Below, in pieces: positions 117-21,923 of a stretch of 37,590 bases of DNA (its first letter is position 1; the number at the start of each line of letters is the position of its first letter). The translations under genes were made by a program, and so were the position numbers. Location: contig CAVEOR010000001.1 in assembly GCA_963617285.1 (NCBI GenBank), forward strand, positions 1 to 37,590, in the 5' to 3' direction. A model generated the notes under the pieces. That model was not told the DNA's origin. It worked only from the letters and a program-made list of their open reading frames with translations, and did no database searches. Source of the DNA: Anaerovoracaceae bacterium (GTDB taxonomy: Bacteria > Bacillota > Clostridia > Peptostreptococcales > Anaerovoracaceae).

Positions 117-1505
117 TTGTATTTCATATTAAATAAAAGAATTGCGCTTCGTTCGTGGGTGCGCTCGCCCTATGCCTATTATATCAAAGGCATAAGGGAT
201 GCACAGCGTCTAAGTAGGGAAGAATACGAACTACTGAAGCTATGCGACGCGAGGCACGATTTAGAAGAATCCGCAACATTAAATAAGCTTAGGGCGCAAG
301 GCATCATCTTGGAATGCGAAGAAGGCGAGTTTATGCTGGACGATTGGCAGGACAAGACATACGACAATCGCTATTTTCCAGCCATGAACTGGATGATTAC
401 AGGAAAGTGCAATTATAACTGCCTGCACTGTTTCAACGCTGCGGATAACGCTCCTCTTCAGAGCGAGTGGAGCCTTGACGAAGCGAATATTTTGCTCGAC
501 CAGGCGAGAGATTGCGGCATAAACGGATTTACCATCACGGGCGGCGAGCCTATGCTGCACAAGAATTTCTTCGATATTTTAGAAGGAATATATAGTCGCG
601 ACATGTATGTATACGAGCTGAATACGAACGGGCACTTCATCAACCAAGAATCCCTCGACAGGATGAAAAATCTCGGCTGCGTGCCACTGATGAAAATCTC
701 ATTCGACGGCATAGGCTGGCACGATTGGCTCAGAAATAAGAAAGGTTCAGAAGAGGATGCCCTCAGGGCAATTTCTCTATGCATAGAAAACGGCTTTCCA
801 GTAAAGGTGCAGACGAATGTCCACAGGAACAACATCGATGTGATGTTAGACACCGTGAACATGCTCGATAGAATGGGTGCGAAGGAAACTCGAGTAATCA
901 GAACGACGGAGGCGCCGCGCTGGGAGCAGAACGCAGGTGGTGCGACCCTCAGTTTCAAGGAATACATGGATGCTATGCTTAACCTGTGGGCGGAATATGC
1001 CAAAGAAGAGCATAAGATGGAGCTTACTTCATGGCAGGTCGGGACTATGATTCCGGAAATCAAGGCATTTTCTCTTGCAGCAGTCGAATGTAGACCTGGA
1101 CAGTACAGAGCAAACGCGCCTGTCTGCAAGGGTAACCGAGGAATGATCGCCGTCGGGGCAAACGGAAATGTCTATCCTTGTCATCAGATGTCGGGATATT
1201 ATGAGCAGCATGATGACATCCTCGGCAACCTGAAGGACGGAAGCCTCAAGGAGCTCATAAGCGGCGGCAAATACATGGACGAAATCTGTACGACCCTTGG
1301 AACTTTGCGAGAAAATAATTTGAAATGCGGCAATTGCAAGTACTTCGAGTTTTGCTGCGGCGGGTGCAGGGCAATTGCACTCGCACTCACGGGCGACAAG
1401 TTAGCGTCCGACCCGTCAAAATGTTTTTTCTTCGAAAACGGGTATTACGAGAAAATCGTAGATATGCTCAGCGGTTGGAAAAACTTCTCGGCCATCGAAG
1501 TATAG
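117..1505 (+). CDS. Radical SAM/SPASM-domain protein, probable peptide maturase with an N-terminal RRE/PqqD-like region
   Basis: CxxxCxxC motif CNYNCLHC, TGGEP, TNG and SFDG motifs; C-terminal SPASM cysteines (VCKG...GNVYPC...CGNCKYFEFCCGGC...DPSKC); ~85-aa N-terminal extension; TTG start; adjacent to precursor and export genes. Confidence 0.92.
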   Translation: MYFILNKRIALRSWVRSPYAYYIKGIRDAQRLSREEYELLKLCDARHDLEESATLNKLRAQGIILECEEGEFMLDDWQDKTYDNRYFPAMNWMITGKCNYNCLHCFNAADNAPLQSEWSLDEANILLDQARDCGINGFTITGGEPMLHKNFFDILEGIYSRDMYVYELNTNGHFINQESLDRMKNLGCVPLMKISFDGIGWHDWLRNKKGSEEDALRAISLCIENGFPVKVQTNVHRNNIDVMLDTVNMLDRMGAKETRVIRTTEAPRWEQNAGGATLSFKEYMDAMLNLWAEYAKEEHKMELTSWQVGTMIPEIKAFSLAAVECRPGQYRANAPVCKGNRGMIAVGANGNVYPCHQMSGYYEQHDDILGNLKDGSLKELISGGKYMDEICTTLGTLRENNLKCGNCKYFEFCCGGCRAIALALTGDKLASDPSKCFFFENGYYEKIVDMLSGWKNFSAIEV

Positions 1506-1566: not shown

Positions 1567-2058
1567 ATGAACAAAGAGTTGTTTCGCGAAGATGCTGTGA
1601 AGAGAGCTTCGTCTCCCGAGCAATTAAATCAGTACATCAAGGTAACGAATCCAGGAGTCTGGGTGAGTCTTGCCGCAATCATTATCCTTCTCATAGGCGT
1701 ATGCGTATGGGGAGTGTTTGGCAGACTTGAGACGACCGTCGATGCCGTTTGCGTGTCCGACGGAAGTCAGGCGATTTGCTACATGGTGGATTCCGAGGCA
1801 ATAGCATCCGTAGAGAAAGGGCAAGAAGTGAAGATTGGAGAGGCGATTTACATAGTCGATTCCGTTTCGCAGGATGCCATTCAGGTAAGCGACAGCACGG
1901 TTTTATCCGTGAGCGAGAGAGCAAAGAGCCTTTGCGGTGTTTCGAATGCTGACTGGGTCTACGAGATAAAACTTAATCTGAGCGGGACGAAGCTGAAGGC
2001 TGGGGCATATAGCGCCAAGATTGTCACCGAGAGCGTTTCGCCTATGTCGTTTATTTAA
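1567..2058 (+). CDS. NHLM/NHLP bacteriocin-system secretion accessory protein (short form)
   Basis: Family-typical N-terminus LFREDAVKRASSPEQLNQYIKVTNP followed by one TM helix; C-terminal ESVSPMSFI; directly upstream of the two ABC genes. Confidence 0.85.
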   Translation: MNKELFREDAVKRASSPEQLNQYIKVTNPGVWVSLAAIIILLIGVCVWGVFGRLETTVDAVCVSDGSQAICYMVDSEAIASVEKGQEVKIGEAIYIVDSVSQDAIQVSDSTVLSVSERAKSLCGVSNADWVYEIKLNLSGTKLKAGAYSAKIVTESVSPMSFI

Positions 2059-2070: not shown

Positions 2071-4248
2071 ATGGGTAAAGAAAGCAGAATCAAATCGCCT
2101 GTAAAACAAGGCGTGGCAAAGGTTCCAGTCATAATGCAAATGGAAGCACTCGAATGTGGTGCGGCTTGCCTTACGATGATCCTTGCATATTACGACAAAT
2201 GGGTTCCGCTCGAGCAAATACGTTCGGATTGCGGTATTTCGCGTGACGGATCCAAGGCAAAGAATATATTGAAGGCAGCGAGGACCTATGGGCTCATCGC
2301 AAAGGGATATAAATATGATATAGAAGCGCTGAAGAAAGAAGCAAAACTCCCTTGCATCATCCATTGGAATTTCAGCCATTTTGTCGTGCTCGATGGATTC
2401 AAAGGTGACAGCGCGATATTAAACGACCCAGCGAAGGGTAGATATGCCGTTCCGATGGAAACCTTCGAGAACTCATACACCGGTATCTGCTTGATGTTTG
2501 AGCCAGGTGAGGAGTTTACCCCAGGCGGCAAGAAAAAATCCGTAGTCAAGTTTGCGATGAAGAGACTAGAGGGCGCAGGAGCGCAGGTTGCGTTTACCAT
2601 GCTCACGGGTTTCATCGGCTCGCTCGTCGCAATGATTTCACCTGTATTCGACAGGATCTTCTTCGATAGGATTCTGACGGGCAAGAATCCAGATTGGTTC
2701 ATGCCGTTTATCATTGCTATTGCAGGATTTTCTTTGATTAGAATCATAGTCGAATGGCTCAGGTCGGTCTATTCGCTCAAGATAAATGGTAAGCTCACCG
2801 CGGTCGGAAACTCGACATACTTTTGGCATGTCCTGCATCTTCCTATGAACTTTTTCTCCCAGAGAATGACTGGTGACATAAGCAACAGGCAGGCTACGAA
2901 TGCGACGATTGCAAATACGATTGTAAACACGTTCGCACCGCTGCTTTTGAACACGATAATGATGTTCTTCTATCTGTTTGTGATGCTGGAATACAGCTGG
3001 TTCTTGACTTTGATTGGCGTGCTATCGATATTCATCAATGTCGTAGTATCCAAGTACATCTCAAATAAGAGAATCAACCTGACGAGAGTTCAGATGCGAG
3101 ATAGCGGATTGCTCTCGGGCACAACGGTTGCGGGAATCGAAATGATAGAGACCATCAAAGCCAGCGGCGCTGAGAATGGATTTTTCCAGAGGTGGGCAGG
3201 CTATCAGGCAAATGTCAATGCCGCGGATGTAAAATACGCGAAGATGAATCAGTACCTTGGCCTTATACCAACGATTGTATCGACCCTTTGCAATACATTG
3301 GTTTTGATGTTCGGCATATACTTTGCTATGAACGGAAGCTTTACAATCGGTATGGTTACCGCGTTCCAAGGATTCTTAAACTCCTTTACTTCGCCGGCAC
3401 TCAGCCTGATCAATGCAGGCCAGTCGATTCAAGAGATGCGTACGCAGATGGAACGTATAGAGGACGTTATGGCTTATCCTGAGGACAGCATTTACGAGGA
3501 GACAGGCGAGCAGACACTTGATAGAAAGCTTTCCGGAAATGTGAGCATCAAGAATGTTTCCTTCGGCTATTCGAAGTTAGATGAGCCTTTGATTAGAGAT
3601 TTCAACCTCGAACTTCAGCCAGGCAAGAGCGTGGCGTTCGTCGGTGCGTCCGGCTGCGGCAAGTCAACGCTGTCGAAGCTTATCTCAGGACTCTATCAGC
3701 CTTGGACTGGCGAGATACTATTTGACGGAAAGAAAATGCAGGAAATTGGCAGGAATATCTTCACCAGCTCCCTTGCTGTCGTAGACCAAGATATAATCCT
3801 GTTTGCCGATACGATAGCAAACAACATAAAGATGTGGGATGCATCCATTGAGGACTTCGAAATGATACTTGCGGCTCGAGATGCCCAGATTCACGAGGAT
3901 ATCATGCTCCGCGAGGGCGGCTACCAAGGAAAGATAGTCGAAGGCGGACATGACCTTTCGGGCGGACAGCGCCAGCGTCTTGAGATTGCAAGAGTTCTCG
4001 CTCAGGATCCGACGATTCTCATTATGGACGAGGCGACCAGTGCCTTGGATGCCAAGACTGAATACAATGTAGTCAAGTCCATCAGAGACCGCGGAATCAC
4101 CACGATTATAGTTGCTCACAGGCTTTCCACGATTAGAGATTGCGACGAGATTATCGTCCTTGACCACGGCAAGGTGGTAGAGCGAGGAACGCACGATGAG
4201 CTGTTTGCAAAAGGCGGGCTGTACACGAGCCTCGTAACGAGCGATTAG
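2071..4248 (+). CDS. NHLP-family bacteriocin export ABC transporter, C39 peptidase/permease/ATPase
   Basis: C39 motifs QMEALECGAACL, HWNFSHFVVL, NDPAKG; TM domain; Walker A GASGCGKST, signature LSGGQRQR, Walker B ILIMDEATSALD. Confidence 0.95.
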   Translation: MGKESRIKSPVKQGVAKVPVIMQMEALECGAACLTMILAYYDKWVPLEQIRSDCGISRDGSKAKNILKAARTYGLIAKGYKYDIEALKKEAKLPCIIHWNFSHFVVLDGFKGDSAILNDPAKGRYAVPMETFENSYTGICLMFEPGEEFTPGGKKKSVVKFAMKRLEGAGAQVAFTMLTGFIGSLVAMISPVFDRIFFDRILTGKNPDWFMPFIIAIAGFSLIRIIVEWLRSVYSLKINGKLTAVGNSTYFWHVLHLPMNFFSQRMTGDISNRQATNATIANTIVNTFAPLLLNTIMMFFYLFVMLEYSWFLTLIGVLSIFINVVVSKYISNKRINLTRVQMRDSGLLSGTTVAGIEMIETIKASGAENGFFQRWAGYQANVNAADVKYAKMNQYLGLIPTIVSTLCNTLVLMFGIYFAMNGSFTIGMVTAFQGFLNSFTSPALSLINAGQSIQEMRTQMERIEDVMAYPEDSIYEETGEQTLDRKLSGNVSIKNVSFGYSKLDEPLIRDFNLELQPGKSVAFVGASGCGKSTLSKLISGLYQPWTGEILFDGKKMQEIGRNIFTSSLAVVDQDIILFADTIANNIKMWDASIEDFEMILAARDAQIHEDIMLREGGYQGKIVEGGHDLSGGQRQRLEIARVLAQDPTILIMDEATSALDAKTEYNVVKSIRDRGITTIIVAHRLSTIRDCDEIIVLDHGKVVERGTHDELFAKGGLYTSLVTSD

Positions 4249-4262: not shown

Positions 4263-6446
4263 ATGAGTTTATTTCAAGACCAATTAGAAACGAGAAAACT
4301 AAACGATGATGCCGTCATTTCTGATGCGATAGAGCAAATAGCTGGTTCGGTCACGGGTAGACGCATATCCGCTGCCGTTGCAGATGAAAGATTGCGTTCG
4401 CTCGACGCCATAAATCAGATTTTAGGGTACTTCGGCAAGCGTCCTTGCGAGATGCCAGAGAAAATCACCAAATTAGATGATCAGATAGATTTTGCCGCTC
4501 GTCCATACGGGATTATGCACAGAAAAGTGAAGCTCGACAAGGGCTGGTACAAGTGTGCCGTAGGTGCAATGCTCACCGAGAAGAAGCAGGGCGGAATAGT
4601 GGCGCTGCTTCCTGGCAAATTCGGCGGATATTATTTCTATGATACGGACGGAAAGAAGACTAAGTTAAACTCAGCCACAGAACAGCTATTGGAGAGCGAG
4701 GCAATTGCATTCTACAATCCTCTCCCGCAGAAGAAACTCAGTGTGGCGGATTTGATGAAATATTCCTTTGCAACCCTCAATCCTTCGGATATATTCTGGA
4801 TTGTGGTGGCGACAGGAGTCATTTCCCTCGTTGGACTTATTTCACCAAAGCTAAACCAGTTGCTGTTTAAGACGGTTGTAGAGTCTGGCAGCGTCAAACT
4901 ACTCATCGCGATTGCCATATTTACCGTATGCGTTTCCATCAGCTTGATGCTGTTTAGCGTGGCAAAGGCTCTTTTCAACTCGAGGATTACGACGAAGATG
5001 TCAAGTGCGGTTCAATCTGCTACGATGATGAGAATACTCTCGCTTCCAACGAGATTTTTCAAGGACTACAGTGCAGGTGAACTTACGAGTAGATCGATGT
5101 ATATCGGCTCGCTTTCGCAGATGATTACAGATGCTATGTTTACGACTGGACTGACTTCGCTTTTCTCCTTGATATATATATTCCAGATCTTTGAATTTGC
5201 ACCCGCACTCGTCGTGCCAGCACTTTTGATAGTACTTGCAACGGTTGTGCTTTCGATTATCACGACATTTGCACAGATGAAGGTTTCCAGAAGGCAGATG
5301 GATCTGGGAACGAAGGATTCGGGACTCAGCTACTCGCTTATTGCAGGCATCCAGAAGATAAAGCTCGCTGGTGCCGAAAAGCGTGCATTCGCAAAGTGGG
5401 GAAATCAATATGCCAAGAGTGCACAGCTGACGTATAACCCGCCTGCAATAATCAAGATGAGCTCTGTTTTCTCGCTTACCATATCCTGCGTTGGCACGGT
5501 GGTGATGTACTACTTTGCCGTTGAGAGTGGAGTTGCGATTGCGGATTACTACGCATTCCAGGCGGCTTATGGAATGGTGTCTGGGGCATTCCTTGCACTT
5601 GTTTCGATTACGAGCACCGTTGCTCAGATTAAGCCGGTCATGGAAATGGCAAAGCCGATTATGGAAACCGCGCCTGAGACGGCCGAAGTTAGGCAGATTG
5701 TAGAGAGAGTCTCTGGAAATATCGAAATCAACAATGTTTCGTTCAAATACAAGGAGAACGGACCTGCGATTTTCGAGAATCTGTCGCTCAAGATAAGGGC
5801 GGGACAATATGTGGCGATCGTCGGGAAGACGGGCTGCGGCAAGTCAACGCTCATCAGACTCTTGCTCGGTTTCGAGAAACCACAGAAGGGCGCTGTATAC
5901 TACGACGGCAGGGATATTGCCAATCTCGATCTTCAATCCCTCAGAAAGAAGCTGGGCGTAGTGACTCAGGATGGCAAGCTCTTCAGAGGAGATATTTTCT
6001 CCAATATCATAATCTCGGCCCCAAGCCTTACGCTGGATGAAGCGTGGGAGGCGGCGGAGATGTCTGGAATTGCAGACGATATCAAGGCTATGCCGATGGG
6101 AATGCACACGATGATTTCGGAAGGCTCTGGCGGCATATCCGGCGGTCAGAAACAAAGAATCATGATTGCAAGGGCCATCGCCCCGAAGCCGAAAATTTTG
6201 ATATTCGACGAGGCGACGAGTGCCCTCGACAATATAACACAGAAGAAAGTCTCAGACGCATTGAATTCTCTCAAATGCACGAGAATTGTCGTCGCCCACA
6301 GGCTTTCTACGATAAAACAATGCGATAGAATTATCGTAATCGACGGTGGCAAGATAATTGAGGACGGGACGTACGACGAGTTGATAGAAGAGAAGGGATT
6401 CTTCGCTGAACTTGTCGAACGCCAGAGAATCAATACTGAAAATTAA
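4263..6446 (+). CDS. NHLP bacteriocin export ABC transporter, permease/ATPase partner subunit (no catalytic C39 motif)
   Basis: N-terminal domain lacks QxxxxECG; TM domain; Walker A GKTGCGKST, ISGGQKQR, ILIFDEATSALD; tandem with the peptidase-ABC. Confidence 0.93.
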   Translation: MSLFQDQLETRKLNDDAVISDAIEQIAGSVTGRRISAAVADERLRSLDAINQILGYFGKRPCEMPEKITKLDDQIDFAARPYGIMHRKVKLDKGWYKCAVGAMLTEKKQGGIVALLPGKFGGYYFYDTDGKKTKLNSATEQLLESEAIAFYNPLPQKKLSVADLMKYSFATLNPSDIFWIVVATGVISLVGLISPKLNQLLFKTVVESGSVKLLIAIAIFTVCVSISLMLFSVAKALFNSRITTKMSSAVQSATMMRILSLPTRFFKDYSAGELTSRSMYIGSLSQMITDAMFTTGLTSLFSLIYIFQIFEFAPALVVPALLIVLATVVLSIITTFAQMKVSRRQMDLGTKDSGLSYSLIAGIQKIKLAGAEKRAFAKWGNQYAKSAQLTYNPPAIIKMSSVFSLTISCVGTVVMYYFAVESGVAIADYYAFQAAYGMVSGAFLALVSITSTVAQIKPVMEMAKPIMETAPETAEVRQIVERVSGNIEINNVSFKYKENGPAIFENLSLKIRAGQYVAIVGKTGCGKSTLIRLLLGFEKPQKGAVYYDGRDIANLDLQSLRKKLGVVTQDGKLFRGDIFSNIIISAPSLTLDEAWEAAEMSGIADDIKAMPMGMHTMISEGSGGISGGQKQRIMIARAIAPKPKILIFDEATSALDNITQKKVSDALNSLKCTRIVVAHRLSTIKQCDRIIVIDGGKIIEDGTYDELIEEKGFFAELVERQRINTEN

Positions 6447-6516: not shown

Positions 6517-6921
6517 ATGGAAATGACCAAAGAAATGAACGAAAAGGCAAGACAAGCAAAAAGTGTTGAAGAGCTCATGGCTCTCGCAAAGGAAAACGAA
6601 GTCGAACTGACAGAAGAAAGTGCGAAAGCATATTTTGATCTTCTTCATCCGCAAAACAGCGAGGTTTCAGATGACGAACTCGACAATGTTGCAGGCGGAA
6701 CGTGCTACGAGGATGGCAGACCTGTTGTAACGATATATAATAGGTGCGAACGCTGGACATGCGAATCATGTCACCGACCTCTTAACCCTGACTATGATAG
6801 TTTTTATGGCGAAAGATATCGTTGCACTTGTCCTACAACCCTTGGATGTGTGGACTGTTATTATTCACGTTATGAGTCTGCACTTCTTTTGTGCTTCCAC
6901 CCAGAGAGATACTATAATTAA
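6517..6921 (+). CDS. Nif11-like leader, double-glycine precursor peptide 1 (61-aa leader, 73-aa Cys-rich core)
   Basis: Strong RBS AAGGAGGT; leader AKSVEELMALAKENEVELTEE...EVSDDELDNVAGG; core with 9 Cys; next to a C39-ABC exporter. Confidence 0.88.
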   Translation: MEMTKEMNEKARQAKSVEELMALAKENEVELTEESAKAYFDLLHPQNSEVSDDELDNVAGGTCYEDGRPVVTIYNRCERWTCESCHRPLNPDYDSFYGERYRCTCPTTLGCVDCYYSRYESALLLCFHPERYYN

Positions 6922-6964
6922 TGCGAAGTAATATCTAAGGAAACATAATGCGGAGGAAATTATT

Positions 6965-7372
6965 ATGAAAATGACCAAAGAAATTAACGAAAAAGCAAGA
7001 CAAGCAAAAAATGTTGAAGAGCTCATGGCAATCGCAAAGGAAAACGAAGTCGAACTGACAGAAGAAAGTGCGAAAGCATATTTTGATCTTCTCCATCCGC
7101 AAAACAGCGAGGTTTCGGATGACGAGCTTGACAATGTTGCAGGCGGAACGTGCTACAAGGATGGCAGACCTGTTGTAACGGCATTTAATTCATGTGAGCG
7201 TTGGGTATGCGAAAGATGCGGCAAAAGAGAAACTGTCGCTGATGGTGGTATCTGGGGTACCAGTTATAAGTGTCCTAATTGTGGCTTAAGTTACGGTTGT
7301 GGGAACTGTCATTATTCACGCTATGAGTCAGCACTTCTTCTGTGCTTCCACCCAGAGAGATACTATAACTAA
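6965..7372 (+). CDS. Nif11-like leader, double-glycine precursor peptide 2 (61-aa leader, 74-aa Cys-rich core)
   Basis: RBS GGAGG; near-identical leader ending ELDNVAGG; core with 9 Cys in the same spacing as precursor 1. Confidence 0.88.
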   Translation: MKMTKEINEKARQAKNVEELMAIAKENEVELTEESAKAYFDLLHPQNSEVSDDELDNVAGGTCYKDGRPVVTAFNSCERWVCERCGKRETVADGGIWGTSYKCPNCGLSYGCGNCHYSRYESALLLCFHPERYYN

Positions 7373-7415: not shown

Positions 7416-8654
7416 ATGAAAACATGTAAATTCAAGAACAAGTCGAAGAAAATCGTTGCGCTGATGCTTGTTTTGGTGATGATTTTCTGTTTTGCGGGAT
7501 GCGGTGGCACGGACACTGACACGCAGACGGAGGACTCAGACAGAGTGATGGGAACGGTTCTCGGTGACTATGTAATCGAGCTTCCGACAATCACTGAAAT
7601 CGACTACGAGGCAGGACTGGCGAAGAACAAAGAAATGTTCGCCCAATTCGGTTGTTCTGCGATTGGCAAGGTTTCGGACGATGGAGATATGCTTATCGGT
7701 CGTTCATTTGACCTTTACTACAGCAATAACCCAGCCTACGTTATTAGGACGGATGTTGAAGGATACTATAAGACGGTCGGACTTGCCTATGATTCCTTCG
7801 ACGGAGAGACATTTGATGTGATTAAAGAAAAGGGTGTGAGCCAGGATGAGCTCCTGACATTGATTTTCTTTACTGAGGATATCATGAACGAGAAGGGGCT
7901 GTATATCGAGGCGAATATGCGCCCTGAGCAGCCAGAGTACACTGGAATTTCTCCAAGCACAGGCACTAACCCTGATGCAGAAGTGTCCCTTTCCTTCTCT
8001 GCTCTCGTAAGATACCTCGGCGAGAGATGTGCCGATGTTGATGAGGCAGTTGAGCTTGCACAGACTTTGAACGTGCATGGCATGATTACGGATGAATTCT
8101 GCTGGGATGGCGGATTCTTCATGGCAGATGAATCTGGCCATTACGGTGTCATGGAACTCGTCGACAACAAGCTTATTTGGCTCGATGGACAGAATTGCCA
8201 GGCTAACTTCTACATCAATGACGAATACAAGGATGTTGCAACTATAGGTGCTGGAACAGGCAGATATGACCTTCTCAGAAGCGAAATCGACTCAATTCAG
8301 AGCGAGGATGAGATGACTAGCCTTATCAAGAAGGTTAGATATACTCAGATTCTCAGCCCATATACCAGCCAATTTGACCCACGCAGTGAATACAGCGGAT
8401 TCGGCGAGGGCTTCGAGTCGGTCGGCGGAGAACTTACCTTGGAAATGTGCCAAAGCGATGAGTATAAGGATATGATTTACGAGACAATCGAAAATGAAGG
8501 AGCGGCAGAGAGGGATAAAGACGTTCAGACGCTTAGAGACGAAGGTACCCAGTGGCTCTCCGTTTGGCAGACAATCTCAAATTGCAATAATAGAACAATC
8601 AAGGCTATCTTCTTCGAGGATGATGAATTGACTTTTGACCTTACGGTTGAATAG
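7416..8654 (+). CDS. Lipoprotein, Ntn-hydrolase (linear amide C-N hydrolase / choloylglycine hydrolase-like), paralog 1
   Basis: Signal peptide with lipobox FAGC (Cys29); internal nucleophile motif G|CSAIGKVSDDGDMLIGRSFD (Cys80); MNEKGL, QANFY and GRY motifs. Confidence 0.82.
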   Translation: MKTCKFKNKSKKIVALMLVLVMIFCFAGCGGTDTDTQTEDSDRVMGTVLGDYVIELPTITEIDYEAGLAKNKEMFAQFGCSAIGKVSDDGDMLIGRSFDLYYSNNPAYVIRTDVEGYYKTVGLAYDSFDGETFDVIKEKGVSQDELLTLIFFTEDIMNEKGLYIEANMRPEQPEYTGISPSTGTNPDAEVSLSFSALVRYLGERCADVDEAVELAQTLNVHGMITDEFCWDGGFFMADESGHYGVMELVDNKLIWLDGQNCQANFYINDEYKDVATIGAGTGRYDLLRSEIDSIQSEDEMTSLIKKVRYTQILSPYTSQFDPRSEYSGFGEGFESVGGELTLEMCQSDEYKDMIYETIENEGAAERDKDVQTLRDEGTQWLSVWQTISNCNNRTIKAIFFEDDELTFDLTVE

Positions 8655-8736: not shown

Positions 8737-9963
8737 ATGAAAAAGAATAATTTTAAGAGAATTTTGGCTATGCTCCTCGCACTTGCACTCGTGTTTAGTT
8801 TTGCCGGATGCGGCGGAAGTGAAACGAGTACGGAGACGGGAACCGATACCTCAGAAGAGGCTCGCACGATGGGAACGGTAGTAGGTGATTATGTCATCGA
8901 ACTTCCGACGATAACGGAGATCGACTTTGATAAGGGACTCGAGAACTTCGAGGCGGAGTTCAGCAAATATGGCTGTACTGCTGTCGGCAAGGTTCTTGAC
9001 AATGGCGATATGGTGATTGGACGCTCATATGACCTTTCTTATAGCTTTTCGCCTGCGTATATAGTTCGCACGGAAATCCCGGGGCTTCTCAAGACGGTTG
9101 GTGTTTCCTATAACGGCTTCAACGGCGCGACATTTGATGATGTAAAGGAAAATGGTCTGACTGAGGATGAGCTCCTTAAGGTTTATTGCTTGACGGGAGA
9201 CGTGCTCAACGAGAAGGGCTTCTACATCGAGGCAAACATGAGAAGCTCACAGCCAGAGGAGACTGGAATCAAAGAATGCAGCGGCACGAATCCTGACGCT
9301 GACATCAGACTCAGCTTTGCGACGCTCATCAGATACCTTGGCGAGAGAGCATCTACAGTAGATGAAGCGCTTGAACTGGCAAGTGAAGTTGATGTTTACG
9401 GATTCAAGACGGATCAATACGACTGGAATGGCGGATTTTTCCTCGCGGATGCAACTGGACACTACGGAGTGCTTGAGCTCATTGACAACAAATTAGTTTG
9501 GAACGACATGCAGCAGGCACACGCGAACTTCTATATTAGCCCAGAGTATAAGGATAGGGCAACGATCGGCGCAGGCATGGGTCGCTACGATGTTGTTATG
9601 GAAGGTATCGACGCTGTCGAGAGCGAGGCGGATATGCGTGAACTCATCGAAAAGGTTAGATATCTGCAGACGCTTTGGCCAGATACTTGTCAATTTGACC
9701 CTGTAGCGGAGTTTGCAGGTACGGAAATCGATGGCAAGACATATTACATCAAGGACGTCCTCGACGAGAGCAACAGAGACATTCTGATGGATTACGCATA
9801 TAGCTATGTGTACACGGATAGAGAGAAGAGCCTTGACGAGAAGAGAGAAGCTAACGACGTTTGGCTTTCCGCATATCAGTCCGTTGTAAATTGCAACAAC
9901 AAAACTTTAAGCGTTAAGTTCTTCGAAGACGACGAACTCCTCTATGACCTTTCCGTAGAATAG
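8737..9963 (+). CDS. Lipoprotein, Ntn-hydrolase (linear amide C-N hydrolase / choloylglycine hydrolase-like), paralog 2
   Basis: Lipobox FAGC (Cys25); G|CTAVGKVLDNGDMVIGRSYD (Cys80); LNEKGF, HANFY, GRY; collinear with paralog 1. Confidence 0.82.
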   Translation: MKKNNFKRILAMLLALALVFSFAGCGGSETSTETGTDTSEEARTMGTVVGDYVIELPTITEIDFDKGLENFEAEFSKYGCTAVGKVLDNGDMVIGRSYDLSYSFSPAYIVRTEIPGLLKTVGVSYNGFNGATFDDVKENGLTEDELLKVYCLTGDVLNEKGFYIEANMRSSQPEETGIKECSGTNPDADIRLSFATLIRYLGERASTVDEALELASEVDVYGFKTDQYDWNGGFFLADATGHYGVLELIDNKLVWNDMQQAHANFYISPEYKDRATIGAGMGRYDVVMEGIDAVESEADMRELIEKVRYLQTLWPDTCQFDPVAEFAGTEIDGKTYYIKDVLDESNRDILMDYAYSYVYTDREKSLDEKREANDVWLSAYQSVVNCNNKTLSVKFFEDDELLYDLSVE

Positions 9964-10200: not shown

Positions 10201-12429
10201 ATGAGTGTAAAACTGAAAAAAATCTTAGCCGCACTGGTAATCGTTGTACTCGTGTTCGGCTGGTATGTCACCTTGTTTGGCATAGGTGACTCATCTAAGG
10301 ACGATGCCATCACATCGGTCAAGTCAGCCTTAAAATACGGTCTTGACATCAATGGTGGCGTATACGTTGTAATGGAAGCGCAGACTGACTTGACTGGCGA
10401 CGAACTCGATGAACTCATGGAGCAGACCAGAGCCGTAATCGACAACCGTGTTAACCAGCTCGGTGTTGCAGAAGCATCCGTAACTATCGAAGGTACGAAC
10501 CGCATCAGAGTAGAGATGCCAGGCGTTGAAGACGCGGACGAAGCTATCCAGGCTATCGGCCAGACGGCTCAGCTTTCCTTCATCCTTGCTGATGGCTCCA
10601 CAGTTCTGACAGGTTCGAACGTAAAGGACGCTCAGATTGCGACAGACGGCGGCTATTACAAGATTTTGCTCGAGTTTGATGACGAAGGCACGTCGCTGTT
10701 CGAAGAGGGTACGCGCAAGGCATATAACCAGGAAGTTACCCCGACAATCGATGGCATGAATGCGAATGAGATCGCTATCGTTCTCGACAACGAAATCGTA
10801 GTTAGCCCTACGGTACAGCAGGTAATCAGCGGCGGTAGCTGCGAAATGACAGGTAACTACTCCAAGGAAGAAGCTTCAACTACTGCAGCCCTCATCAGAG
10901 GCGGTGCACTTCCTGTAGACCTCGTTGAAGTACAGTCATCCGTACAGGCAGCAACAGTAGGCGCAGATGCCCTCGACAAGTCAATCGTTGCAGGTGCAAT
11001 CGGTCTCGGAATCGTATTCCTTCTGATGCTCGCATTCTACGGCATGCTCGGATTCATCGCTGACATCGCACTTTTGCTCTATGTAATCATGTTCATGTGG
11101 TCAATGGTAGCATTTAACGTTGTCCTGACACTTCCGGGAATTGCTGCATTGATTCTGTCCATTGGTATGGCGGTAGACGCAAACGTTATCATCTTTGCTA
11201 GAATCAAAGAAGAAATCGCAGCAGGCAAGTCCATCAGAGTCGCAGTTGACGCTGGTTTCAAGAACGCGCTCAGCACGGTACTCGACGCACAGATCACGAC
11301 ACTTATCGCTGCAGTTGTACTTTACGAAGTTGGTACTACATCGGTTAAGGGCTTCGCTCTTACACTCATGATCGGTATCGTCATCAGTATTTTCACAGCA
11401 GTTGTTATAACTCAGCTTTTCATTTCGCTGTTGGCAGAGAGTCCAAAGTTCTGCAAGAACAAATACTTCGGTTGCAACGAGGACGGTTCGCCTAAGCAAA
11501 TGCTTAATAAGACTTTCTCATTTATTAAACATAGAAAGATTTTCTACTGCATCAGCGTTGGTATCATCGTGCTCGGCCTCGTATGGTCGCTCGTATTCGG
11601 CATGAACTACGGTATCGACTTTACTGGTGGTACGACATTCCAGATCGAATTCGGTCAGCAGATGGATATCGACGAAGTAGAAGACACTCTCGCAGATTAC
11701 GAACTTGATCCACAGATCATCTACGCAGGCGAGAACAACACTCAGCTCATCATCAAGACGATCAAATCGCTTGAGAACGCTGACAGAAACGACATCATTG
11801 CTACATTAGAAGACGCTTACGGAATCACAGATGACGACATCCTCGCATCAGAGCAGTTCGGTCCATCCGTTGGTAACGAGCTGAAGACAAACGCAGTCAA
11901 GGCTGTAATCATCGCATCCTTGGGTATGCTGATTTACATCATCTTCAGATTCAAATCATGGAAATACGGTCTTTCCGCAGTTGCTGGCGTAGTGCATGAC
12001 GTTCTCATCGTAATCGCGTTCTATGCAATCTTCGGATACACTGTAAACAACCCGTTCATCGCAGCTATCCTCACACTCGTAGGATACTCGATTAACGACA
12101 CAATCGTAATATTTGATAGAATCAGAGAGAACAAGGCGATTCACCCAAGAAATTCTGGCGAAGAGAACATCGACCTGAGTATCAACCAGACTCTGAACAG
12201 AACGATTATGACATCGCTGACAACGCTCGTTGTAATGATTCCGCTTTGCATCATGGTTTCGTCCTCCATCAGAGAGTTCATCATTCCACTCATGGTCGGC
12301 GTAATCGTAGGTTGTGCATCCTCAATCTTCATCTGCAGCCCGCTCTACTATGACCTCTGCAAGAAGGACGAGGGTTCCAAGTACCTTCAGAACACTGCAA
12401 AGAAGAGCAAAGCCAGCAAGGCTAAATAA
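10201..12429 (+). CDS. secDF: Protein translocase subunit SecDF (fused)
   Basis: YGLDINGG, IDNRVNQLGVAE, IRGGALP, GMAVDANVIIFARIKEE; SecF half GIDFTGG, GYSINDTIVIFDRIRE. Confidence 0.96.
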   Translation: MSVKLKKILAALVIVVLVFGWYVTLFGIGDSSKDDAITSVKSALKYGLDINGGVYVVMEAQTDLTGDELDELMEQTRAVIDNRVNQLGVAEASVTIEGTNRIRVEMPGVEDADEAIQAIGQTAQLSFILADGSTVLTGSNVKDAQIATDGGYYKILLEFDDEGTSLFEEGTRKAYNQEVTPTIDGMNANEIAIVLDNEIVVSPTVQQVISGGSCEMTGNYSKEEASTTAALIRGGALPVDLVEVQSSVQAATVGADALDKSIVAGAIGLGIVFLLMLAFYGMLGFIADIALLLYVIMFMWSMVAFNVVLTLPGIAALILSIGMAVDANVIIFARIKEEIAAGKSIRVAVDAGFKNALSTVLDAQITTLIAAVVLYEVGTTSVKGFALTLMIGIVISIFTAVVITQLFISLLAESPKFCKNKYFGCNEDGSPKQMLNKTFSFIKHRKIFYCISVGIIVLGLVWSLVFGMNYGIDFTGGTTFQIEFGQQMDIDEVEDTLADYELDPQIIYAGENNTQLIIKTIKSLENADRNDIIATLEDAYGITDDDILASEQFGPSVGNELKTNAVKAVIIASLGMLIYIIFRFKSWKYGLSAVAGVVHDVLIVIAFYAIFGYTVNNPFIAAILTLVGYSINDTIVIFDRIRENKAIHPRNSGEENIDLSINQTLNRTIMTSLTTLVVMIPLCIMVSSSIREFIIPLMVGVIVGCASSIFICSPLYYDLCKKDEGSKYLQNTAKKSKASKAK

Positions 12430-12477
12430 AAGAGAATTATCCTAATAAAAAACCTATAAAATTTTCTAGGAGAAAAG

Positions 12478-14679
12478 ATGTTAACAAAGGCCGAGTTTTT
12501 AGAAAAAATATTAAATATGAATTCTAAATACAACACCGAACTGATTGGAAGGGCGTTCGATACAGCCAGGAATCTGCATGATGGGCAGCTGCGCAAGAGC
12601 GGTGAACCGTATTTCATTCACCCGATAAATGTAGCGCTGATACTCGCAGAGATGGGCATGGACGACGCGACGATCGTCGGTGGGCTTTTGCATGACGTCG
12701 TTGAAGACACGGAATATACCAGAGAGCAGCTCGTCGCCGACTTTGGCGAGGAGATTGCTCTTTTGGTAGATGGTGTTACGAAGTTAGGCGCCATCAAATT
12801 CGAAAGCAAAGAAGAAATCCAGGCGGAGAACTTCCGCAAGATGTTCCTAGCCATGAGCAAGGACATCCGCGTTCTCATCATCAAGTTAGCCGACAGGCTG
12901 CACAACATGAGGACGATGAAATACATGAAACCAGAGAAAATCGTTGAAAAATGCAACGAAACTTTGGAGATTTACGCACCGCTTGCATCGAGACTGGGTA
13001 TATTCACCATCAAATTCGAACTCGAGGATCTGGCACTGCAATACCTGCATCCGGAGGAATTCGAAGACCTCAAGCAGAAGGTAAGCAAGCGCAAGGAAGA
13101 AAGAGAAGCGACCATCAACACCGTAATCGGTGAAATCAAGGAGTCGCTCGACGATATGGACCTGCATTACGATATTTACGGCAGGGCGAAACACTATTAC
13201 AGCATCTACCGCAAGATGAAGTTCCAGCACAAGCAAATCGACGAAATCTTCGACCTGATCGCTGTAAGAATAATAGTAGATAGTATCAAGGAATGCTACG
13301 CAGTGCTTGGAATCGTCCACACTATGTGGAAGCCAATCCCAGGCAGATTCAAGGATTACGTTGCAATGCCGAAGCCGAACATGTACCAGTCGCTACACAC
13401 GACGGTAATCGGCGATAACGGCGAACCATTCGAAATTCAGATAAGAACATATGAGATGCACAAAGTTGCTGAATATGGTATCGCAGCCCACTGGAAGTAC
13501 AAGGAGGGCGATACGTCAGGCAACTCATCCAATGATGACATAAAATTAGCATGGCTCAGGCAGTCGCTTGAGTGGCAGAAGGACATAAACGACCCGAAGG
13601 ACTTCCTGGAGACGATGAAGATGGACCTCTTCGCAAGCCAGGTATTCGTATTCACGCCGCAAGGGGACGTTATCGAGCTCCCAGCGGGCTCCACGCCGCT
13701 TGACTTCGCGTTCAAGATTCACTCGGCCATAGGTTGCAAGTGCGTCGGCGCCAAGGTAAACGGCAAGATGGTTACGATTGACTATACGCTGCAAAACGGC
13801 GATATCGTTGAAATTGTAACGTCCGCGAACTCGTCAGGCCCGAGCGTAGACTGGCTGAAAATCGCCAAGAGTTCCAACGCCAGAAACAAGATTAGGGCTT
13901 GGCTGAAGAAAGAAAACAAGTCGGACAATATAGACAAGGGCAAGGATTTGCTCGACAAATACGTTCGCAAGAAGGGCTACGATCCATCAAACGTAATTAA
14001 GTCCGCATACGTAACGAAAGCCACTAAGGCTCTCAATTACGCAAACACGGACGAGGCATACGCACAGCTTGCCAACGGCGGAACGCTGGTAAGCAAATTC
14101 GCAAACCTGCTCTTCAGCTATTACGCTGAGGAAAAGCCAGCTGAGATCAAGTCAAACGAAGCAGTAATCGACGAAATCAAGGCTGCTGAGGCTCGCAAGG
14201 CGAAACTCAACCGCCGCCAGAAGGATAACCCTGGAATCGTGGTTGAAGGCATGGATAACCTGATGGTTAAGCTCGCTAAGTGCTGCAATCCAGTGCCTGG
14301 CGACGATATCATAGGCTTTATTACGAAGGGCAGAGGTATTTCCGTTCATAGATGCGACTGCTCGAACATAGTGTCTCTCCCAGAGGCTGAGAAGCAGAGA
14401 TTCATCCATGTTGAATGGGAGAACCTGAAGGAAGGTAAGTCCTACAATGCGGATATTTGCATTATAGGTAATGACAGAAAAGGCATTCTCTCGGATATTT
14501 CGAGGGTTTGCGAGGATATGGATATTCACCTGTCTGGCGTAAATGCCAAGAGCGGCAAGGACGGAAGTCTGATGATGACGATTACACTTTCGATTTCCAG
14601 TACGCAGGAGATGCAGAAGGTTCTTAGGAATCTAAGGAATATCAGCGGAGTTACGCATGTTTACAGGGCGAAATCGTGA
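12478..14679 (+). CDS. relA: Bifunctional (p)ppGpp synthetase/hydrolase Rel
   Basis: RKSGEPYFIHP, intact HDVVED, KLADRLHNMRT, RFKDY, YQSLHT, EIQIRT; TGS, CCNPVPGD zinc finger and ACT domains. Confidence 0.97.
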   Translation: MLTKAEFLEKILNMNSKYNTELIGRAFDTARNLHDGQLRKSGEPYFIHPINVALILAEMGMDDATIVGGLLHDVVEDTEYTREQLVADFGEEIALLVDGVTKLGAIKFESKEEIQAENFRKMFLAMSKDIRVLIIKLADRLHNMRTMKYMKPEKIVEKCNETLEIYAPLASRLGIFTIKFELEDLALQYLHPEEFEDLKQKVSKRKEEREATINTVIGEIKESLDDMDLHYDIYGRAKHYYSIYRKMKFQHKQIDEIFDLIAVRIIVDSIKECYAVLGIVHTMWKPIPGRFKDYVAMPKPNMYQSLHTTVIGDNGEPFEIQIRTYEMHKVAEYGIAAHWKYKEGDTSGNSSNDDIKLAWLRQSLEWQKDINDPKDFLETMKMDLFASQVFVFTPQGDVIELPAGSTPLDFAFKIHSAIGCKCVGAKVNGKMVTIDYTLQNGDIVEIVTSANSSGPSVDWLKIAKSSNARNKIRAWLKKENKSDNIDKGKDLLDKYVRKKGYDPSNVIKSAYVTKATKALNYANTDEAYAQLANGGTLVSKFANLLFSYYAEEKPAEIKSNEAVIDEIKAAEARKAKLNRRQKDNPGIVVEGMDNLMVKLAKCCNPVPGDDIIGFITKGRGISVHRCDCSNIVSLPEAEKQRFIHVEWENLKEGKSYNADICIIGNDRKGILSDISRVCEDMDIHLSGVNAKSGKDGSLMMTITLSISSTQEMQKVLRNLRNISGVTHVYRAKS

Positions 14680-14688
14680 GGTGAATTT

Positions 14689-15138
14689 ATGAGAGCCGTA
14701 GTGCAGCGTGTGACGGATGCAAGTGTGTCCGTGGATGAGAAAATTACAGGTGAGATTGGCAAGGGTATGGTGGTTCTCCTCGGTGTTGAGGATGGAGACA
14801 CTGAGAAGGATGCGGACTATATCGCAGACAAAATTGCTGGTCTTAGAATATTCGACGACGAAAACGGCGTTATGAACATCTCGGTCATGGATATCGGAGG
14901 CGGAATCCTCTCGATTTCGCAGTTTACGCTTCTGGCGGATGCTCGCAAGGGCAAGAGACCGAACTACATCAAGGCCGCTCGCCCAGAGGAAGCAAACAAG
15001 CTCTATGAGTATTTCAACGATAGGCTCGAGGGCAAGGGTATTCACGTGGAAAAAGGCATTTTCCAGGCTGAGATGCTCGTTAGAATCAATAATGACGGGC
15101 CGGTGACGATTCTGCTGGACAGCCACAAGCTCTTCTAA
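14689..15138 (+). CDS. dtd: D-aminoacyl-tRNA deacylase
   Basis: MRAVVQRV, SQFTL, NDGPVT motifs; follows rel. Confidence 0.97.
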   Translation: MRAVVQRVTDASVSVDEKITGEIGKGMVVLLGVEDGDTEKDADYIADKIAGLRIFDDENGVMNISVMDIGGGILSISQFTLLADARKGKRPNYIKAARPEEANKLYEYFNDRLEGKGIHVEKGIFQAEMLVRINNDGPVTILLDSHKLF

Positions 15139-15142
15139 TCTG

Positions 15143-15163
15143 AGAGTGCAGAGTGAAGAGTGG
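15143..15163 (+). repeat. Three tandem heptamers AGAGTGN
   Basis: AGAGTGC-AGAGTGA-AGAGTGG just after the dtd stop codon. Confidence 0.7.
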
Positions 15164-15203
15164 AGTTCAATTCGAAAGTTTAGAATAGAAAGGGATTATT
15201 GAA

Positions 15204-15824
15204 GTGAAGATTTTTTCGTATATAACTGGGCCGATTCAGGTCAACACTTATTTGGTATATGATGAGAACACAATGAAGGGATTTATCGTTGACCCTGGCG
15301 ATTACTCGCAGAAGCTGAGCAAGCAGGCGATGGATCTTGGAATTGACATAGAGTACATAATTCTCACGCACGGTCACGGCGACCATATCGGTGGAGTTGA
15401 GAAATTCAAACGCGATTTTTCTTCCGCAAAGCTCGTGGCGCATGAAAAAGAGAAGGAAATGCTCTTAGACGCAGTGATGAACTGCTCGGCAGAGTTTTTC
15501 CCAGGCGGCGTGACGCTTACACCTGACATTTGGGTCAAGGATGGCGACAAACTTCAGGTCGGCGACATGGAGCTGAAGATTATACATACGCCGGGCCATA
15601 CGCCAGGCGGCATTTGCATATATGTTGGAGATACGTTATTCAGCGGCGACACGCTGTTTAGACGTTCAGTAGGTAGAACAGACTTCCCAGGTGGCGACCA
15701 GAGAGCTTTGATTAACTCAATCAAGGACAGGCTCTACCACTTGCCAGACGACACGAGGGTGCTTCCAGGACACATGGGAGAAACCACGATTGGGGAAGAA
15801 AAGAGAGGAAATCCTTTTGTATAA
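15204..15824 (+). CDS. MBL-fold metallo-hydrolase (glyoxalase II-like)
   Basis: THGHGDH, HTPGHTPG, FSGDTLF, LPGH motifs; GTG start. Confidence 0.93.
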   Translation: MKIFSYITGPIQVNTYLVYDENTMKGFIVDPGDYSQKLSKQAMDLGIDIEYIILTHGHGDHIGGVEKFKRDFSSAKLVAHEKEKEMLLDAVMNCSAEFFPGGVTLTPDIWVKDGDKLQVGDMELKIIHTPGHTPGGICIYVGDTLFSGDTLFRRSVGRTDFPGGDQRALINSIKDRLYHLPDDTRVLPGHMGETTIGEEKRGNPFV

Positions 15825-17211
15825 TATCATACTTAAGAATGTCGAAAATAAATATGACTACGGCGAGCTCATCAAGATTTTCCTGAGGCCAGAGGAGTTC
15901 ACGCTATATACGGAGGCGGAACTTGCAGAGGCTGAAGTCGTTGAAAATACTGACTCAGAGCGAATTGTATTCAACGAAAGCCTCTCGACCGACAAAAACG
16001 AAATCAAGCGAGAGATTTACAATAAATTATTTTCGTTAACTGGCGAAAAACCAGAGTGGGGCATACTCACTGGGGTGAGACCGGTCAAACTGACGGGTGA
16101 AATCTTTGATAGAGCCGGCGATAAGAGCAAGGTCGAGGAAATCCTAAGAAATGAGTACCTGCTCGCTGACGAGAAAATCAGGCTTTTGATTGACACATAT
16201 ACATACCAGCAGGAATGCTTCGGCAAACCAGAGAGAAACTCAGTCGGACTTTATATCGGAATTCCGTTTTGCCCGACGAGGTGCCTATATTGCTCGTTCA
16301 CATCCAACCAAGTTGGCGACGCAGAGATAGCAAGGTATCTGGAAGCCTTAAAGACAGAAATCCAGTATGTCGGCAGGCGAATGAAGGAGACTGGACTCTT
16401 TGCTGAGAGCATATACATAGGCGGCGGAACGCCGACGACGCTGACGGCTGAGCAACTTGATGATTTACTCGCGACCGTCGAAGAGAATATCGACTTGACT
16501 CAGATACGCGAGTTCACGGTGGAGGCTGGTCGCCCAGAGACCATCACATACGAGAAACTGAGAAAAATCAAGTCGCACAATATAGAAAGAATCAGCATAA
16601 ACCCGCAGACGATGCACCAGAAGACGCTTGAGATAATCGGAAGGCAGCATAAGCCAGAGGACATAATCCAGGCATTCGAGAGGGCAAAGGAAGTCGGGAT
16701 AAACATAATAAACGCTGACCTTATAACAGGACTGCCGGGCGAGAGCCCAGAAGACTTTGCCCAGACACTTGACAAGGTCATGGCACTTGAGCCGGAGAAC
16801 ATAACAGTCCATACGCTGGCGGTCAAGCGTGCATCTAGACTCGTCGAGCTCGATAAGGATTTTCATTATAAGCAAGCCCAGACGGTCAAGGATATGCTTG
16901 GAATCGCCAAAGAAAAGCTCGCAGAGAACGGCTTTCGTCCATATTATCTGTATAGGCAGAAGCACATGGCGGGAGCATTCGAAAACACGGGATATTGCAA
17001 GGAAGGCGCAGCAAGCCTTTACAATGTCCGCATAATGGAAGAAAAACAGACCATAATTGCACTCGGGGCGGGAGGCATCAGCAAGATGTACTACCCAGAC
17101 GAGAACAGGCTCGAACGAGTGCCAAACGTATCAAATTACGAAATCTATATTTCCCGATTAGAGGAAATGCTGGATAGAAAAGAACAAAAAATTTTTAAGG
17201 AGGTAAACTAG
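15817..17211 (+). CDS. hemZ: HemZ-family radical SAM protein (coproporphyrinogen dehydrogenase-like)
   Basis: WGILTGVRP, YIGIPFCPTRCLYCSF, GGGTPT, TVEAGRP, PYYLYRQK; start placed at TTG 15817 behind GAGAGGA (ORF track uses 15790). Confidence 0.92.
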   Translation: MYNIILKNVENKYDYGELIKIFLRPEEFTLYTEAELAEAEVVENTDSERIVFNESLSTDKNEIKREIYNKLFSLTGEKPEWGILTGVRPVKLTGEIFDRAGDKSKVEEILRNEYLLADEKIRLLIDTYTYQQECFGKPERNSVGLYIGIPFCPTRCLYCSFTSNQVGDAEIARYLEALKTEIQYVGRRMKETGLFAESIYIGGGTPTTLTAEQLDDLLATVEENIDLTQIREFTVEAGRPETITYEKLRKIKSHNIERISINPQTMHQKTLEIIGRQHKPEDIIQAFERAKEVGINIINADLITGLPGESPEDFAQTLDKVMALEPENITVHTLAVKRASRLVELDKDFHYKQAQTVKDMLGIAKEKLAENGFRPYYLYRQKHMAGAFENTGYCKEGAASLYNVRIMEEKQTIIALGAGGISKMYYPDENRLERVPNVSNYEIYISRLEEMLDRKEQKIFKEVN

Positions 17212-17212
17212 C

Positions 17213-18478: not shown

Positions 18479-18512
18479 AAAATATATTTAAGATAAATTA
18501 AGGAAAAGAGAA

Positions 18513-20276: not shown

Positions 20277-20336
20277 GACGACGCACGAACGTACAAAATA
20301 GTAAGATGGACATGCGAAAGCAACGCAAGTGCCCAG

Positions 20337-20966
20337 ATGACTAAAAATAACAGAATGAAAAAAGAAAAAATAGGCGTGCTGGGCGGCTCGTTCGACCCAG
20401 CACACAAGGCTCACGTAGCATTCGGAAGTGCTGCGATTAGCGAGGCTGGGCTTGACAGACTTCTCGTCATGCCCGCCTACATACAGCCTTTCAAGAGAGA
20501 AAAGAAAGTAACAGACGAAGAGCATAGACTTGCGACTGCTCGCCTTGCCTTTGCGGGTATCGAGCGTGCTGAAGTCTCAAGTTTTGAGATCGACAAGCAA
20601 TGCGTATCCTACACGTTCGACACGCTGACTGCGCTCACGGAGATGTTCCCTGATGCGGAGATTTACTTTGCTACGGGCTCAGATTCATTTATGACGCTTG
20701 ACACTTGGTACAAGGGTAAGGAAATGCTGAGGAAATTCTCGTTTATAACCGCGCTCCGTCCCAGTGACAGCGAAGAAATGCTTGACTCGAAAATCGCGGA
20801 ATTTCAAGCTGTGTATGGAACGAAGGTTATCAAGCTAAAGACAAAGATGTTAGACATTTCCTCGACGAAGGTCAGAAATGCCTATGCAGCGGGCGAGGAT
20901 GTGAGCGAGCTCATACCAGATAGCGTTGCCCAGTATATCAAGGCAAACGGACTGTACACAATATAA
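20337..20966 (+). CDS. nadD: Nicotinate-nucleotide adenylyltransferase
   Basis: GGSFDPAHKAH, SYTFDT, GSDS, ISST; upstream of yqeK-rsfS; start could be ATG 20355. Confidence 0.93.
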   Translation: MTKNNRMKKEKIGVLGGSFDPAHKAHVAFGSAAISEAGLDRLLVMPAYIQPFKREKKVTDEEHRLATARLAFAGIERAEVSSFEIDKQCVSYTFDTLTALTEMFPDAEIYFATGSDSFMTLDTWYKGKEMLRKFSFITALRPSDSEEMLDSKIAEFQAVYGTKVIKLKTKMLDISSTKVRNAYAAGEDVSELIPDSVAQYIKANGLYTI

Positions 20967-20969
20967 ACC

Positions 20970-21548: not shown

Positions 21549-21561
21549 AAAGGGAAGAAAA

Positions 21562-21906: not shown

Positions 21907-21923
21907 AGAGGAAACTTAAACAA

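Follow-up and report, generated by a model that had tools for sequence, protein, structure and literature searches.

Two double-glycine precursors of an Anaerovoracaceae bacterium probably encode secreted, folded mini-proteins with nested metal sites

Double-glycine/Nif11 systems are usually read as makers of short, heavily modified peptides. Lanthipeptides are the products of the Lah cluster of Lachnospiraceae C6A11. In this gut clostridial Nif11-type double-Gly array with diverse cores (LahT/LahA1-9), one tolerant C39 domain cuts the precursors, according to the sections of PMC6363468 that deal with cleavage. For the N11P/NHLM systems (TIGR03798; TIGR03794/03796/03797), passages of PMC2887384 (Haft, Basu and Mitchell 2010) describe hypervariable cores on NHLP/N11P leaders beside the same type of exporter as that found here, and passages of PMC4289311 report radical SAM enzymes (rSAMs) beside such clusters in anaerobes, where the cores are 14-59 aa long and are read as substrates for heterocycle or lanthionine formation. 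The rSAMs CteB, PapB, StsB, SkfB and CrpC, as presented in parts of PMC10288494 and PMC13692751, combine a CxxxCxxC motif and a seven-Cys SPASM domain with a Cys-rich, leader-bearing substrate.

We analysed a stretch of 37,590 nucleotides (hereafter "the window") at the start of contig CAVEOR010000001.1 of an Anaerovoracaceae bacterium (assembly GCA_963617285.1). Leader-bearing precursor and exporter genes lie on one strand in a single gene run; because the window starts at the contig start, more of the cassette may be missing. The first gene (117..1505, +) encodes a radical SAM/SPASM enzyme, a putative maturase with an N-terminal extension of ~85 residues, for which PF04055 and PF13186 both score above cut-off. 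It is followed by a gene for a short HlyD-like protein, an accessory to the NHLP exporter (1567..2058, +; 163 aa), which matches TIGR03794 at E 8.7e-11 but, with 41 bits against a cut-off of 156 and the first 95 of 421 model positions covered, falls short of the full-length TIGR03794 secretion protein. Next come a C39-peptidase ABC transporter predicted to cleave leaders and export the products (2071..4248, +; PF03412; TIGR03796 at 934 bits, above the cut-off of 853), in which the Cys/His/Asp motifs are present, and the NHLP exporter's second ABC subunit (4263..6446, +; TIGR03797 at 719 bits, above the cut-off of 709).

Two precursor genes lie downstream, 6517-6921 (+, 134 aa), preceded by a strong ribosome-binding site, and 6965-7372 (+, 135 aa); their products are 75% identical in a pairwise comparison, and no further precursor was found in the same assembly, which is 81% complete. 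Both leaders are 61 residues long and end in VAGG at residues 58-61. Leader 1 (6517..6699, +) is Nif11-like with a double-Gly end and matches TIGR03798 at E 3.8e-5, and leader 2 (6965..7147, +) is identical to it at 57/61 residues; at 23.8 and 23.7 bits, neither reaches the TIGR03798 cut-off of 32.3. E(-8) and L(-7), given in the relevant part of PMC6363468 as the double-Gly consensus for C39 recognition, are present in both leaders together with GG, and leader 1 has V(-4); position -12 is Val here and Leu in 262/332 sequences of the family. By analogy with the exporter family, export would involve cleavage of the leader behind GG and release of the complete core, and we regard predicted export of the cores as well supported.

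The locus shares with N11P/NHLM systems, as far as these are covered in the passages cited above, the long and conserved double-Gly leader, variable cores, tandem precursors and exporter trio. Unlike them, it has leaders below the TIGR03798 cut-off and a truncated HlyD-like gene, no cyclodehydratase or LanM was found among the recurring neighbours, and the cores, about 55-85 aa across the family, are predicted folded domains with metal-type ligands. It likewise resembles the Lah array as a Nif11-type double-Gly system, but its maturase is an rSAM/SPASM protein and its cores share a predicted folded scaffold.

Core 1 (6700..6921 including the stop, 6700-6918 coding, +) has 73 aa, a net charge of -2 and nine Cys, at positions 2, 16, 21, 24, 42, 44, 50, 53 and 65. 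Core 2 (7148..7372 including the stop, 7148-7369 coding, +) has 74 aa, a net charge of +2 and nine Cys, at 2, 16, 21, 24, 42, 45, 51, 54 and 66. An initial annotation of the window had proposed the spacing C-x13-C-x4-CxxC-x17-Cx(1-2)C-x5-CxxC-x11-C-x-H, which is exact in both cores, and had noted a common start (TCYxDGRPVVT), common end blocks and only two identities among 17 loop residues, all of which we find as described. The predicted inner metal site of core 1 (6760..6831, +) consists of CxxC, the 17-residue loop (6772-6822) and CxC; the corresponding zinc-ribbon-like insert predicted in core 2 (7208..7282, +) consists of CxxC, a loop modelled as a β-hairpin (7220-7270) and CxxC. The predicted outer site of core 2 (+) comprises Cys16, Cys51, Cys54 and Cys66.

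To place this pair in a family, we used precursor 2 as query and obtained 283 homologues at E<=0.001, 120 of them listed. A profile search, from which the best 150 of 3,258 sequences at E<=0.001 were used, probably matched many of these through the leader alone. A genome scan of the best 80 of 135 confirmed matches yielded 73 loci, mostly titled Eubacteriales, Oscillospiraceae or Clostridia, carrying 366 precursors, with as many as about 17 in a single tandem array. With the window subtracted, an rSAM was found in 39 of the 73 loci, an HlyD-like gene in 40 and an ECF sigma factor in 37, many of the loci being interrupted by contig ends. A SpoIIE/PP2C-type sensor, an RsbW-like anti-sigma factor and an ECF sigma factor recur with the cassette (L008:163-8718 and many others); in the genome under study, homologues of the sensor and the anti-sigma factor lie on another contig (C69). 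Among 20 genomes of the host genus, whose members are kin and not independent, seven carry both precursors together with a close ortholog of the rSAM and 13 carry neither. In one genome of another genus (G026), precursors and exporter are present and the rSAM was not found, the assembly ending at that point. At seven loci (L005, L011, L017, L024, L030, L070 and L071), precursors stand in arrays or singly, and neither an exporter nor an rSAM was detected in the available sequence; these precursors are possibly served in trans.

Splitting 635 precursors at the leader gave 611 cores, 332 of them non-redundant at 70%. A core profile matched 247, of which 238 could be parsed and 228 were kept after ten implausible parses were dropped. 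As the parse demands the four outer Cys, their invariance in the 228 scaffold cores is partly built in; in a first alignment of 44 full-length homologues, these four and the first inner Cys were invariant. CxxC-x11-C occurs in 180/228 scaffold cores, and this, together with the 283 homologues, places the Cys spacing beyond chance, so that the conserved spacing expected from the window pair holds in the homologues.

The cores have no curated Pfam family, nothing falling under E 0.08. NCBIfam gave weak scattered matches only, at most 3/86 members per family; Pfam on 36 insert-less cores gave two single weak matches, and a search of plasmids and phages gave none. ESM Atlas matches reached 0.80 or lower and serve as leads only. 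No published account of the core family was found in a literature search that leaves out most subscription papers. Three short family motifs were absent from one spreadsheet of PMC10288494, and the text of PMC3132745 available holds nothing on this system.

We then examined which residues exchange for one another at the inner site. Among 141 cores that open the insert with CxxC, 51 carry only a downstream Cys pair, 61 only HxC, three both and 26 neither, so that these last do not fit either form of second half cleanly. The mutual exclusivity of CC and HxC has a Fisher p of 3e-15, which overstates the case because related sequences are not independent. HxC occurs in 61/87 pair-less cores, against a mean of 8 and a maximum of 17 when loops are shuffled, while the Cys pair is retained in every one of the 27 cores whose insert begins with CxxD. 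On an insert-free tree of 96 rows, a quick tree from a short alignment, the CC/HxC state changes 16 times (shuffled mean 33, minimum 24), indicating that the states are clustered but arose in more than one event. Cys/His/Asp exchange at fixed positions is a signature of metal sites, and His forms neither disulfides nor thioethers with Cys.

The insert can also be lost as a unit. The first inner knuckle is absent in 40 cores. In 27 of these the insert has no Cys and a median length of 13 aa instead of 29, yet the outer C+CxxC+C is kept. Profiles of insert-bearing and insert-less cores align at 99.2%. Taken together, ligand swaps and insert loss fit zinc ligands better than disulfides or multiple thioethers. 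Thus, we strongly infer that the core binds two tetrahedral metal ions, with zinc as the most likely, default identity at the predicted sites. Cys16, together with the last CxxC and the final Cys, would form an outer site that closes a small β-scaffold, and an optional inner zinc-ribbon insert (CxxC ... CxxC/CxC/HxC) would carry the variable hairpin loop. The nesting of a zinc-ribbon-like site within an outer four-Cys site, as initially proposed, is thereby supported by the swaps, the whole-insert deletions and the structural model described below.

The structure prediction that had been suggested as a check gave, for core 2, a confident AlphaFold fold with a zinc-ribbon-like insert (86 cores, metal-free model; pLDDT 93.9, pTM 0.78). 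The model has three hairpins, one at the N terminus, one inside the loop (strands 30-34 and 37-41) and one at the C terminus. Only two of 48,161 chains matched it at Z>=2. Model residues 18-50 align to residues 1-33 of Pol III initiation-complex chains, which we take to be Brf/TFIIB zinc ribbons, with a weak Z of 2.3 and an rmsd of 1.8-1.9 Å over 31-33 residues. Like a TFIIB/Brf-type ribbon, the predicted insert combines two knuckles and a β-hairpin with C/H/D ligand interchange; unlike it, and with a Z of only 2.3, it appears as an optional insert in a second site of an exported peptide. Fold searches with the precursor and with the core gave no match at E<=0.001 and no whole-core match, which does not prove a new fold. 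Ribosomal protein bL36 recurred in weak profile matches to the C-terminal CxxC-x11-C block (E 0.08-0.5, not significant) and was absent from the structure-search matches; in the present cores, a Cys further upstream would serve as fourth ligand. We treat bL36 as a lead only. PDB sequence matches to C2H2 fingers and to USP2 were set aside as Cys-pattern noise.

Cys2 (6703..6705, + in core 1; 7151..7153, + in core 2) lies outside both predicted sites. The early suggestion that Cys2 and the distal His are left free thus stands for Cys2, but the His is not a conserved feature, that position being His in 67 and Asn in 78 of 228 cores. A Cys within three residues of GG is found in 216/228 scaffold cores and in 81/85 other cores; the latter are those that miss the core profile, many being distant scaffold relatives, so that only a minority test Cys2 independently. 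Several of the 85 are unrelated to the scaffold, some (such as L017:7648-8034 and L027:3617-4009) with the leader-proximal Cys as their sole Cys, and nine of the 228 scaffold cores have no Cys in the first four residues and keep the outer four. Since it is present in unrelated cores and dispensable to the outer four, Cys2 behaves as a property of the system rather than of the fold. Unrelated cores with one or two Cys, SH3/KOW-like by eye, were seen within the same arrays (L017:7648-8034, L027:3617-4009, L006:10845-11261), and other array cores show single zinc-ribbon patterns; all start with a leader-proximal Cys and a Gly/Ser/Pro linker.

From this distribution, Cys2 is the likely single target of the radical SAM enzyme. 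The rSAM/SPASM protein would recognise the leader and then modify this one leader-proximal residue. The simplest product would be a single short thioether ring capping the new N-terminus, with the remaining eight Cys left as metal ligands. We hold this scheme, of a single rSAM that recognises the leader and modifies Cys2, in its simplest form as one thioether, to be evenly poised between right and wrong; Cys2 could instead be kept for the peptidase or for an unlinked enzyme. No fixed acceptor residue for Cys2 emerged across the cores. A PapB-like CX3D acceptor, found in 114/216 scaffold cores but in 16/81 others, with CX2D in the window cores, gives no general rule, and pairing of Cys2 with a variable Cys at core position 57 was dropped because the latter is absent in 78/170 cores with Cys2.

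The enzyme carries its CxxxCxxC motif at 98-105 and is 56-80% identical across 37/38 other loci; all seven SPASM Cys are invariant in 39/39 aligned sequences. Its linkage to a Cys-containing precursor is an arrangement shared with sactipeptide and ranthipeptide systems. It reaches no named maturase cut-off, the best 25 of 70 NCBIfam matches all lying far below, but weakly matches the thioether maturase models StsB and PapB; the best solved relative is SkfB (E 3e-15), and residues 1-85 match no RRE family. The six catalytic-site positions of CteB are defined in the part of PMC10288494 that treats this enzyme; like CteB, our rSAM has Phe after CxxxCxxC and Cys-His-Gln in the SPASM loop, F106, H356 and Q357 corresponding to positions 1, 5 and 6, with only three of the six positions mapped and His356 kept in only 25/38 rSAMs. 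A passage of PMC13692751 describes CrpC as having a seven-Cys SPASM that leaves an open iron for a substrate Cys. Unlike the substrates of thioether rSAMs, those here have no repeated thioether motif, which is why we predict one leader-proximal event and not several rings.

As to variability, the family does combine a loop that varies with a Cys scaffold that is fixed: per-site entropy over 86 cores is 3.5 bits in the loop and 1.9 bits at flank sites other than Cys. Variability is not limited to the loop, since non-Cys sites 42-50 are equally variable (3.5 bits in the same 86 cores), nor is the loop fixed at 17 residues: its length ranges from 5 to 26 with a median of 13, and 17 occurs in 13/150. 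Similarly, the window pair, which had been thought to diverge in the loop, diverges over core residues 12-53 (nucleotide identity 0.37-0.75), against 0.92-0.97 in the leader, core residues 1-11 and the final 20 codons. Among conserved codons, 7/14 in the middle and 10/83 in the leader and flanks differ synonymously (p 0.002), a pattern consistent with recombination or gene conversion acting on the flanks. The window pair is thus a mosaic of recently homogenised flanks around an older, divergent middle.

We asked next whether loops diversify under selection, choosing pairs by flank divergence alone, so that 94 qualifying pairs gave 12, 14 and 18 disjoint pairs in three bands. Loop dN/dS was 0.29, 0.59 and 0.65, pooled values that could hide single sites, and flank dN/dS 0.14, 0.15 and 0.21. 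In the closest band, 11/12 pairs keep the loop at least 80% identical, and some loops are identical at a flank pS of 0.33, while in two same-array pairs at pS 0.17-0.20 the loops are already only 23-31% identical. One core occurs unchanged behind ten different leaders. A diversity-generating retroelement was considered and rejected, only 17 and 14 of 61 window-pair differences falling at A in either copy; no reverse transcriptase or template repeat was found in the host assembly, 81% complete. Ongoing, antibody-like hypervariation is therefore not what these data describe: with loop dN/dS below 1, loops kept and differences not specific to A, the antibody analogy raised in the initial annotation applies to architecture only. 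Germline families such as defensins or conotoxins offer the closer analogy. Loop variation is an inherited repertoire, in which paralogs differ and copies across genomes often keep their loop, and which is apparently shuffled by recombination. That many distinct loop types have been retained speaks for specific partners.

Several other readings of the same cores have to be weighed. The gene content invites one in which the products are polycyclic sactipeptides or ranthipeptides, the rSAM turning most Cys into thioether staples with the loop held between rings: an rSAM/SPASM enzyme with seven SPASM Cys is tightly linked to the precursors, it resembles StsB and PapB models, however weakly, and CrpC, according to the pertinent part of PMC13692751, installs ranthionines on a Cys-rich protein with CxxQ/D motifs, CxxD being present in 27 of our cores. 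Set against this are the His in the fixed HxC position of 61/87 pair-less cores, which is no thioether donor, the lack of a conserved acceptor for the CxxC pairs, the confident fold of the unmodified core, and the service of one enzyme to unrelated cores, some with a single Cys; multiple stapling, which the initial annotation had entertained, is disfavoured on these grounds and we rate it as improbable. We consider it slightly more improbable that four disulfides hold the scaffold as in a defensin-like mini-protein. The products would indeed be secreted, small, Cys-rich and often cationic (the family is mildly so, with a median net charge of +3 and 133/228 cores at +3 or more), and inner Cys are lost together; but single Cys-to-His or Cys-to-Asp swaps leave partners unpaired, Cys counts are odd or even without pattern, with nine in both window cores, and the hosts, by their titles, belong to anaerobe lineages.

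Two further alternatives accept metal binding. That the sites interleave in an AN1- or RING-like cross-brace is allowed by three CxxC-type knuckles in series, which permit either wiring, but appears very improbable: knuckles 1 and 2 disappear as a unit from cores that retain Cys16, the last CxxC and the final Cys, and model residues 18-50 align as one ribbon. The joint loss of the inner knuckles with retention of the outer Cys, and the 99.2% profile alignment, favour nesting over cross-bracing. The same fold might otherwise act as a metal scavenger or buffer, metallothionein- or metallophore-like, with the loop a nearly neutral linker; eight metal-type ligands per 74 aa, relaxed constraint on a loop of 5-26 residues and the failure to identify an immunity gene would suit such a role. 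Loops identical between genomes at a flank pS of up to 0.33, arrays that hold many loop types alongside cores with only one or two Cys, and the absence of a recurring metal importer among annotated neighbour clusters argue otherwise, and we judge the buffer unlikely. As a whole, the best explanation is that both genes encode precursors of secreted, folded mini-proteins of 73-74 aa with nested metal sites, a reading that we consider probable though far from certain; the proposal of a long mini-protein rather than a short bacteriocin is favoured.

The exported mini-proteins would act outside the cell, on other microbes or on cell surfaces, with insert and loop tuning the target, the least certain step of the scheme. 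No recurring immunity gene of at least 110 aa was found among neighbours of the family loci, so that strong antibacterial toxicity fits poorly, and the linked partner-switching sigma module makes signalling or surface roles possible in addition. Antagonism has a near-even chance of being the function, signalling or adhesion is a tentative option, and metal handling is doubtful.

What is new here is the evidence from ligand swaps and deletions for nested metal sites, and the selection analysis; the type of leader and exporter is known. A bolder and speculative extension, which we offer with low confidence, is that gut Clostridia keep a library of zinc-stabilised binders on an undescribed fold. 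The target would be set by a zinc-ribbon finger that can be exchanged and that recombination shuffles between conserved flanks, and one rSAM would add a new N-terminal Cys modification (a cap, an anchor or a reactive handle) to every member whatever its fold. If true, this would be a RiPP pathway that makes folded metalloproteins tagged once rather than cross-linked peptides. Apart from this extension, genome-mining tools would class the cores among multi-thioether RiPPs, while the evidence points to metal-folded domains that are exported, bear a variable finger that can be removed, and occur in arrays in many uncultured gut Clostridia. If that is right, gut microbes secrete a class of effectors that has been overlooked, built on a small natural display scaffold that tolerates loops of 5-26 residues and can lose an entire subdomain, and served by an uncharacterised rSAM family for which a single target residue can be put to a sharp test.

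A few observations concern variants and surroundings of the cassette. At three loci (L025:8699-9124, L042:8853-9278, L081:683-1650), the outer Cys pattern is kept and the inner ribbon is replaced by a long, aromatic-rich and largely Cys-free insert. A sister cassette (L094:7912-13020) encodes an rSAM that is 30% identical and precursors with abundant CxCxxxGxG-like repeats. It also has three zinc-ribbon-like cores with short leaders and no Cys2; ribbons that are unmodified thus seem to be transported there by an exporter of the same type. Downstream of the window pair, two tandem lipoprotein-like genes (7416-8654 and 8737-9963; 52% identical) show weak C45/Ntn-hydrolase similarity; with only one weak match among 94 other loci, they were discarded as cassette members. 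An ordinary housekeeping run follows the cassette at 10201-24416 (secDF, relA/spoT, D-aminoacyl-tRNA deacylase, HisRS, AspRS and LeuRS). Finally, in two deletion variants (L074:296-580, -; L033:11323-11607, +), the leader and first core residues are fused to the C-terminal block, leaving a 22-aa core whose block is nearly identical to that of the window cores, which suggests microhomology recombination within the family.
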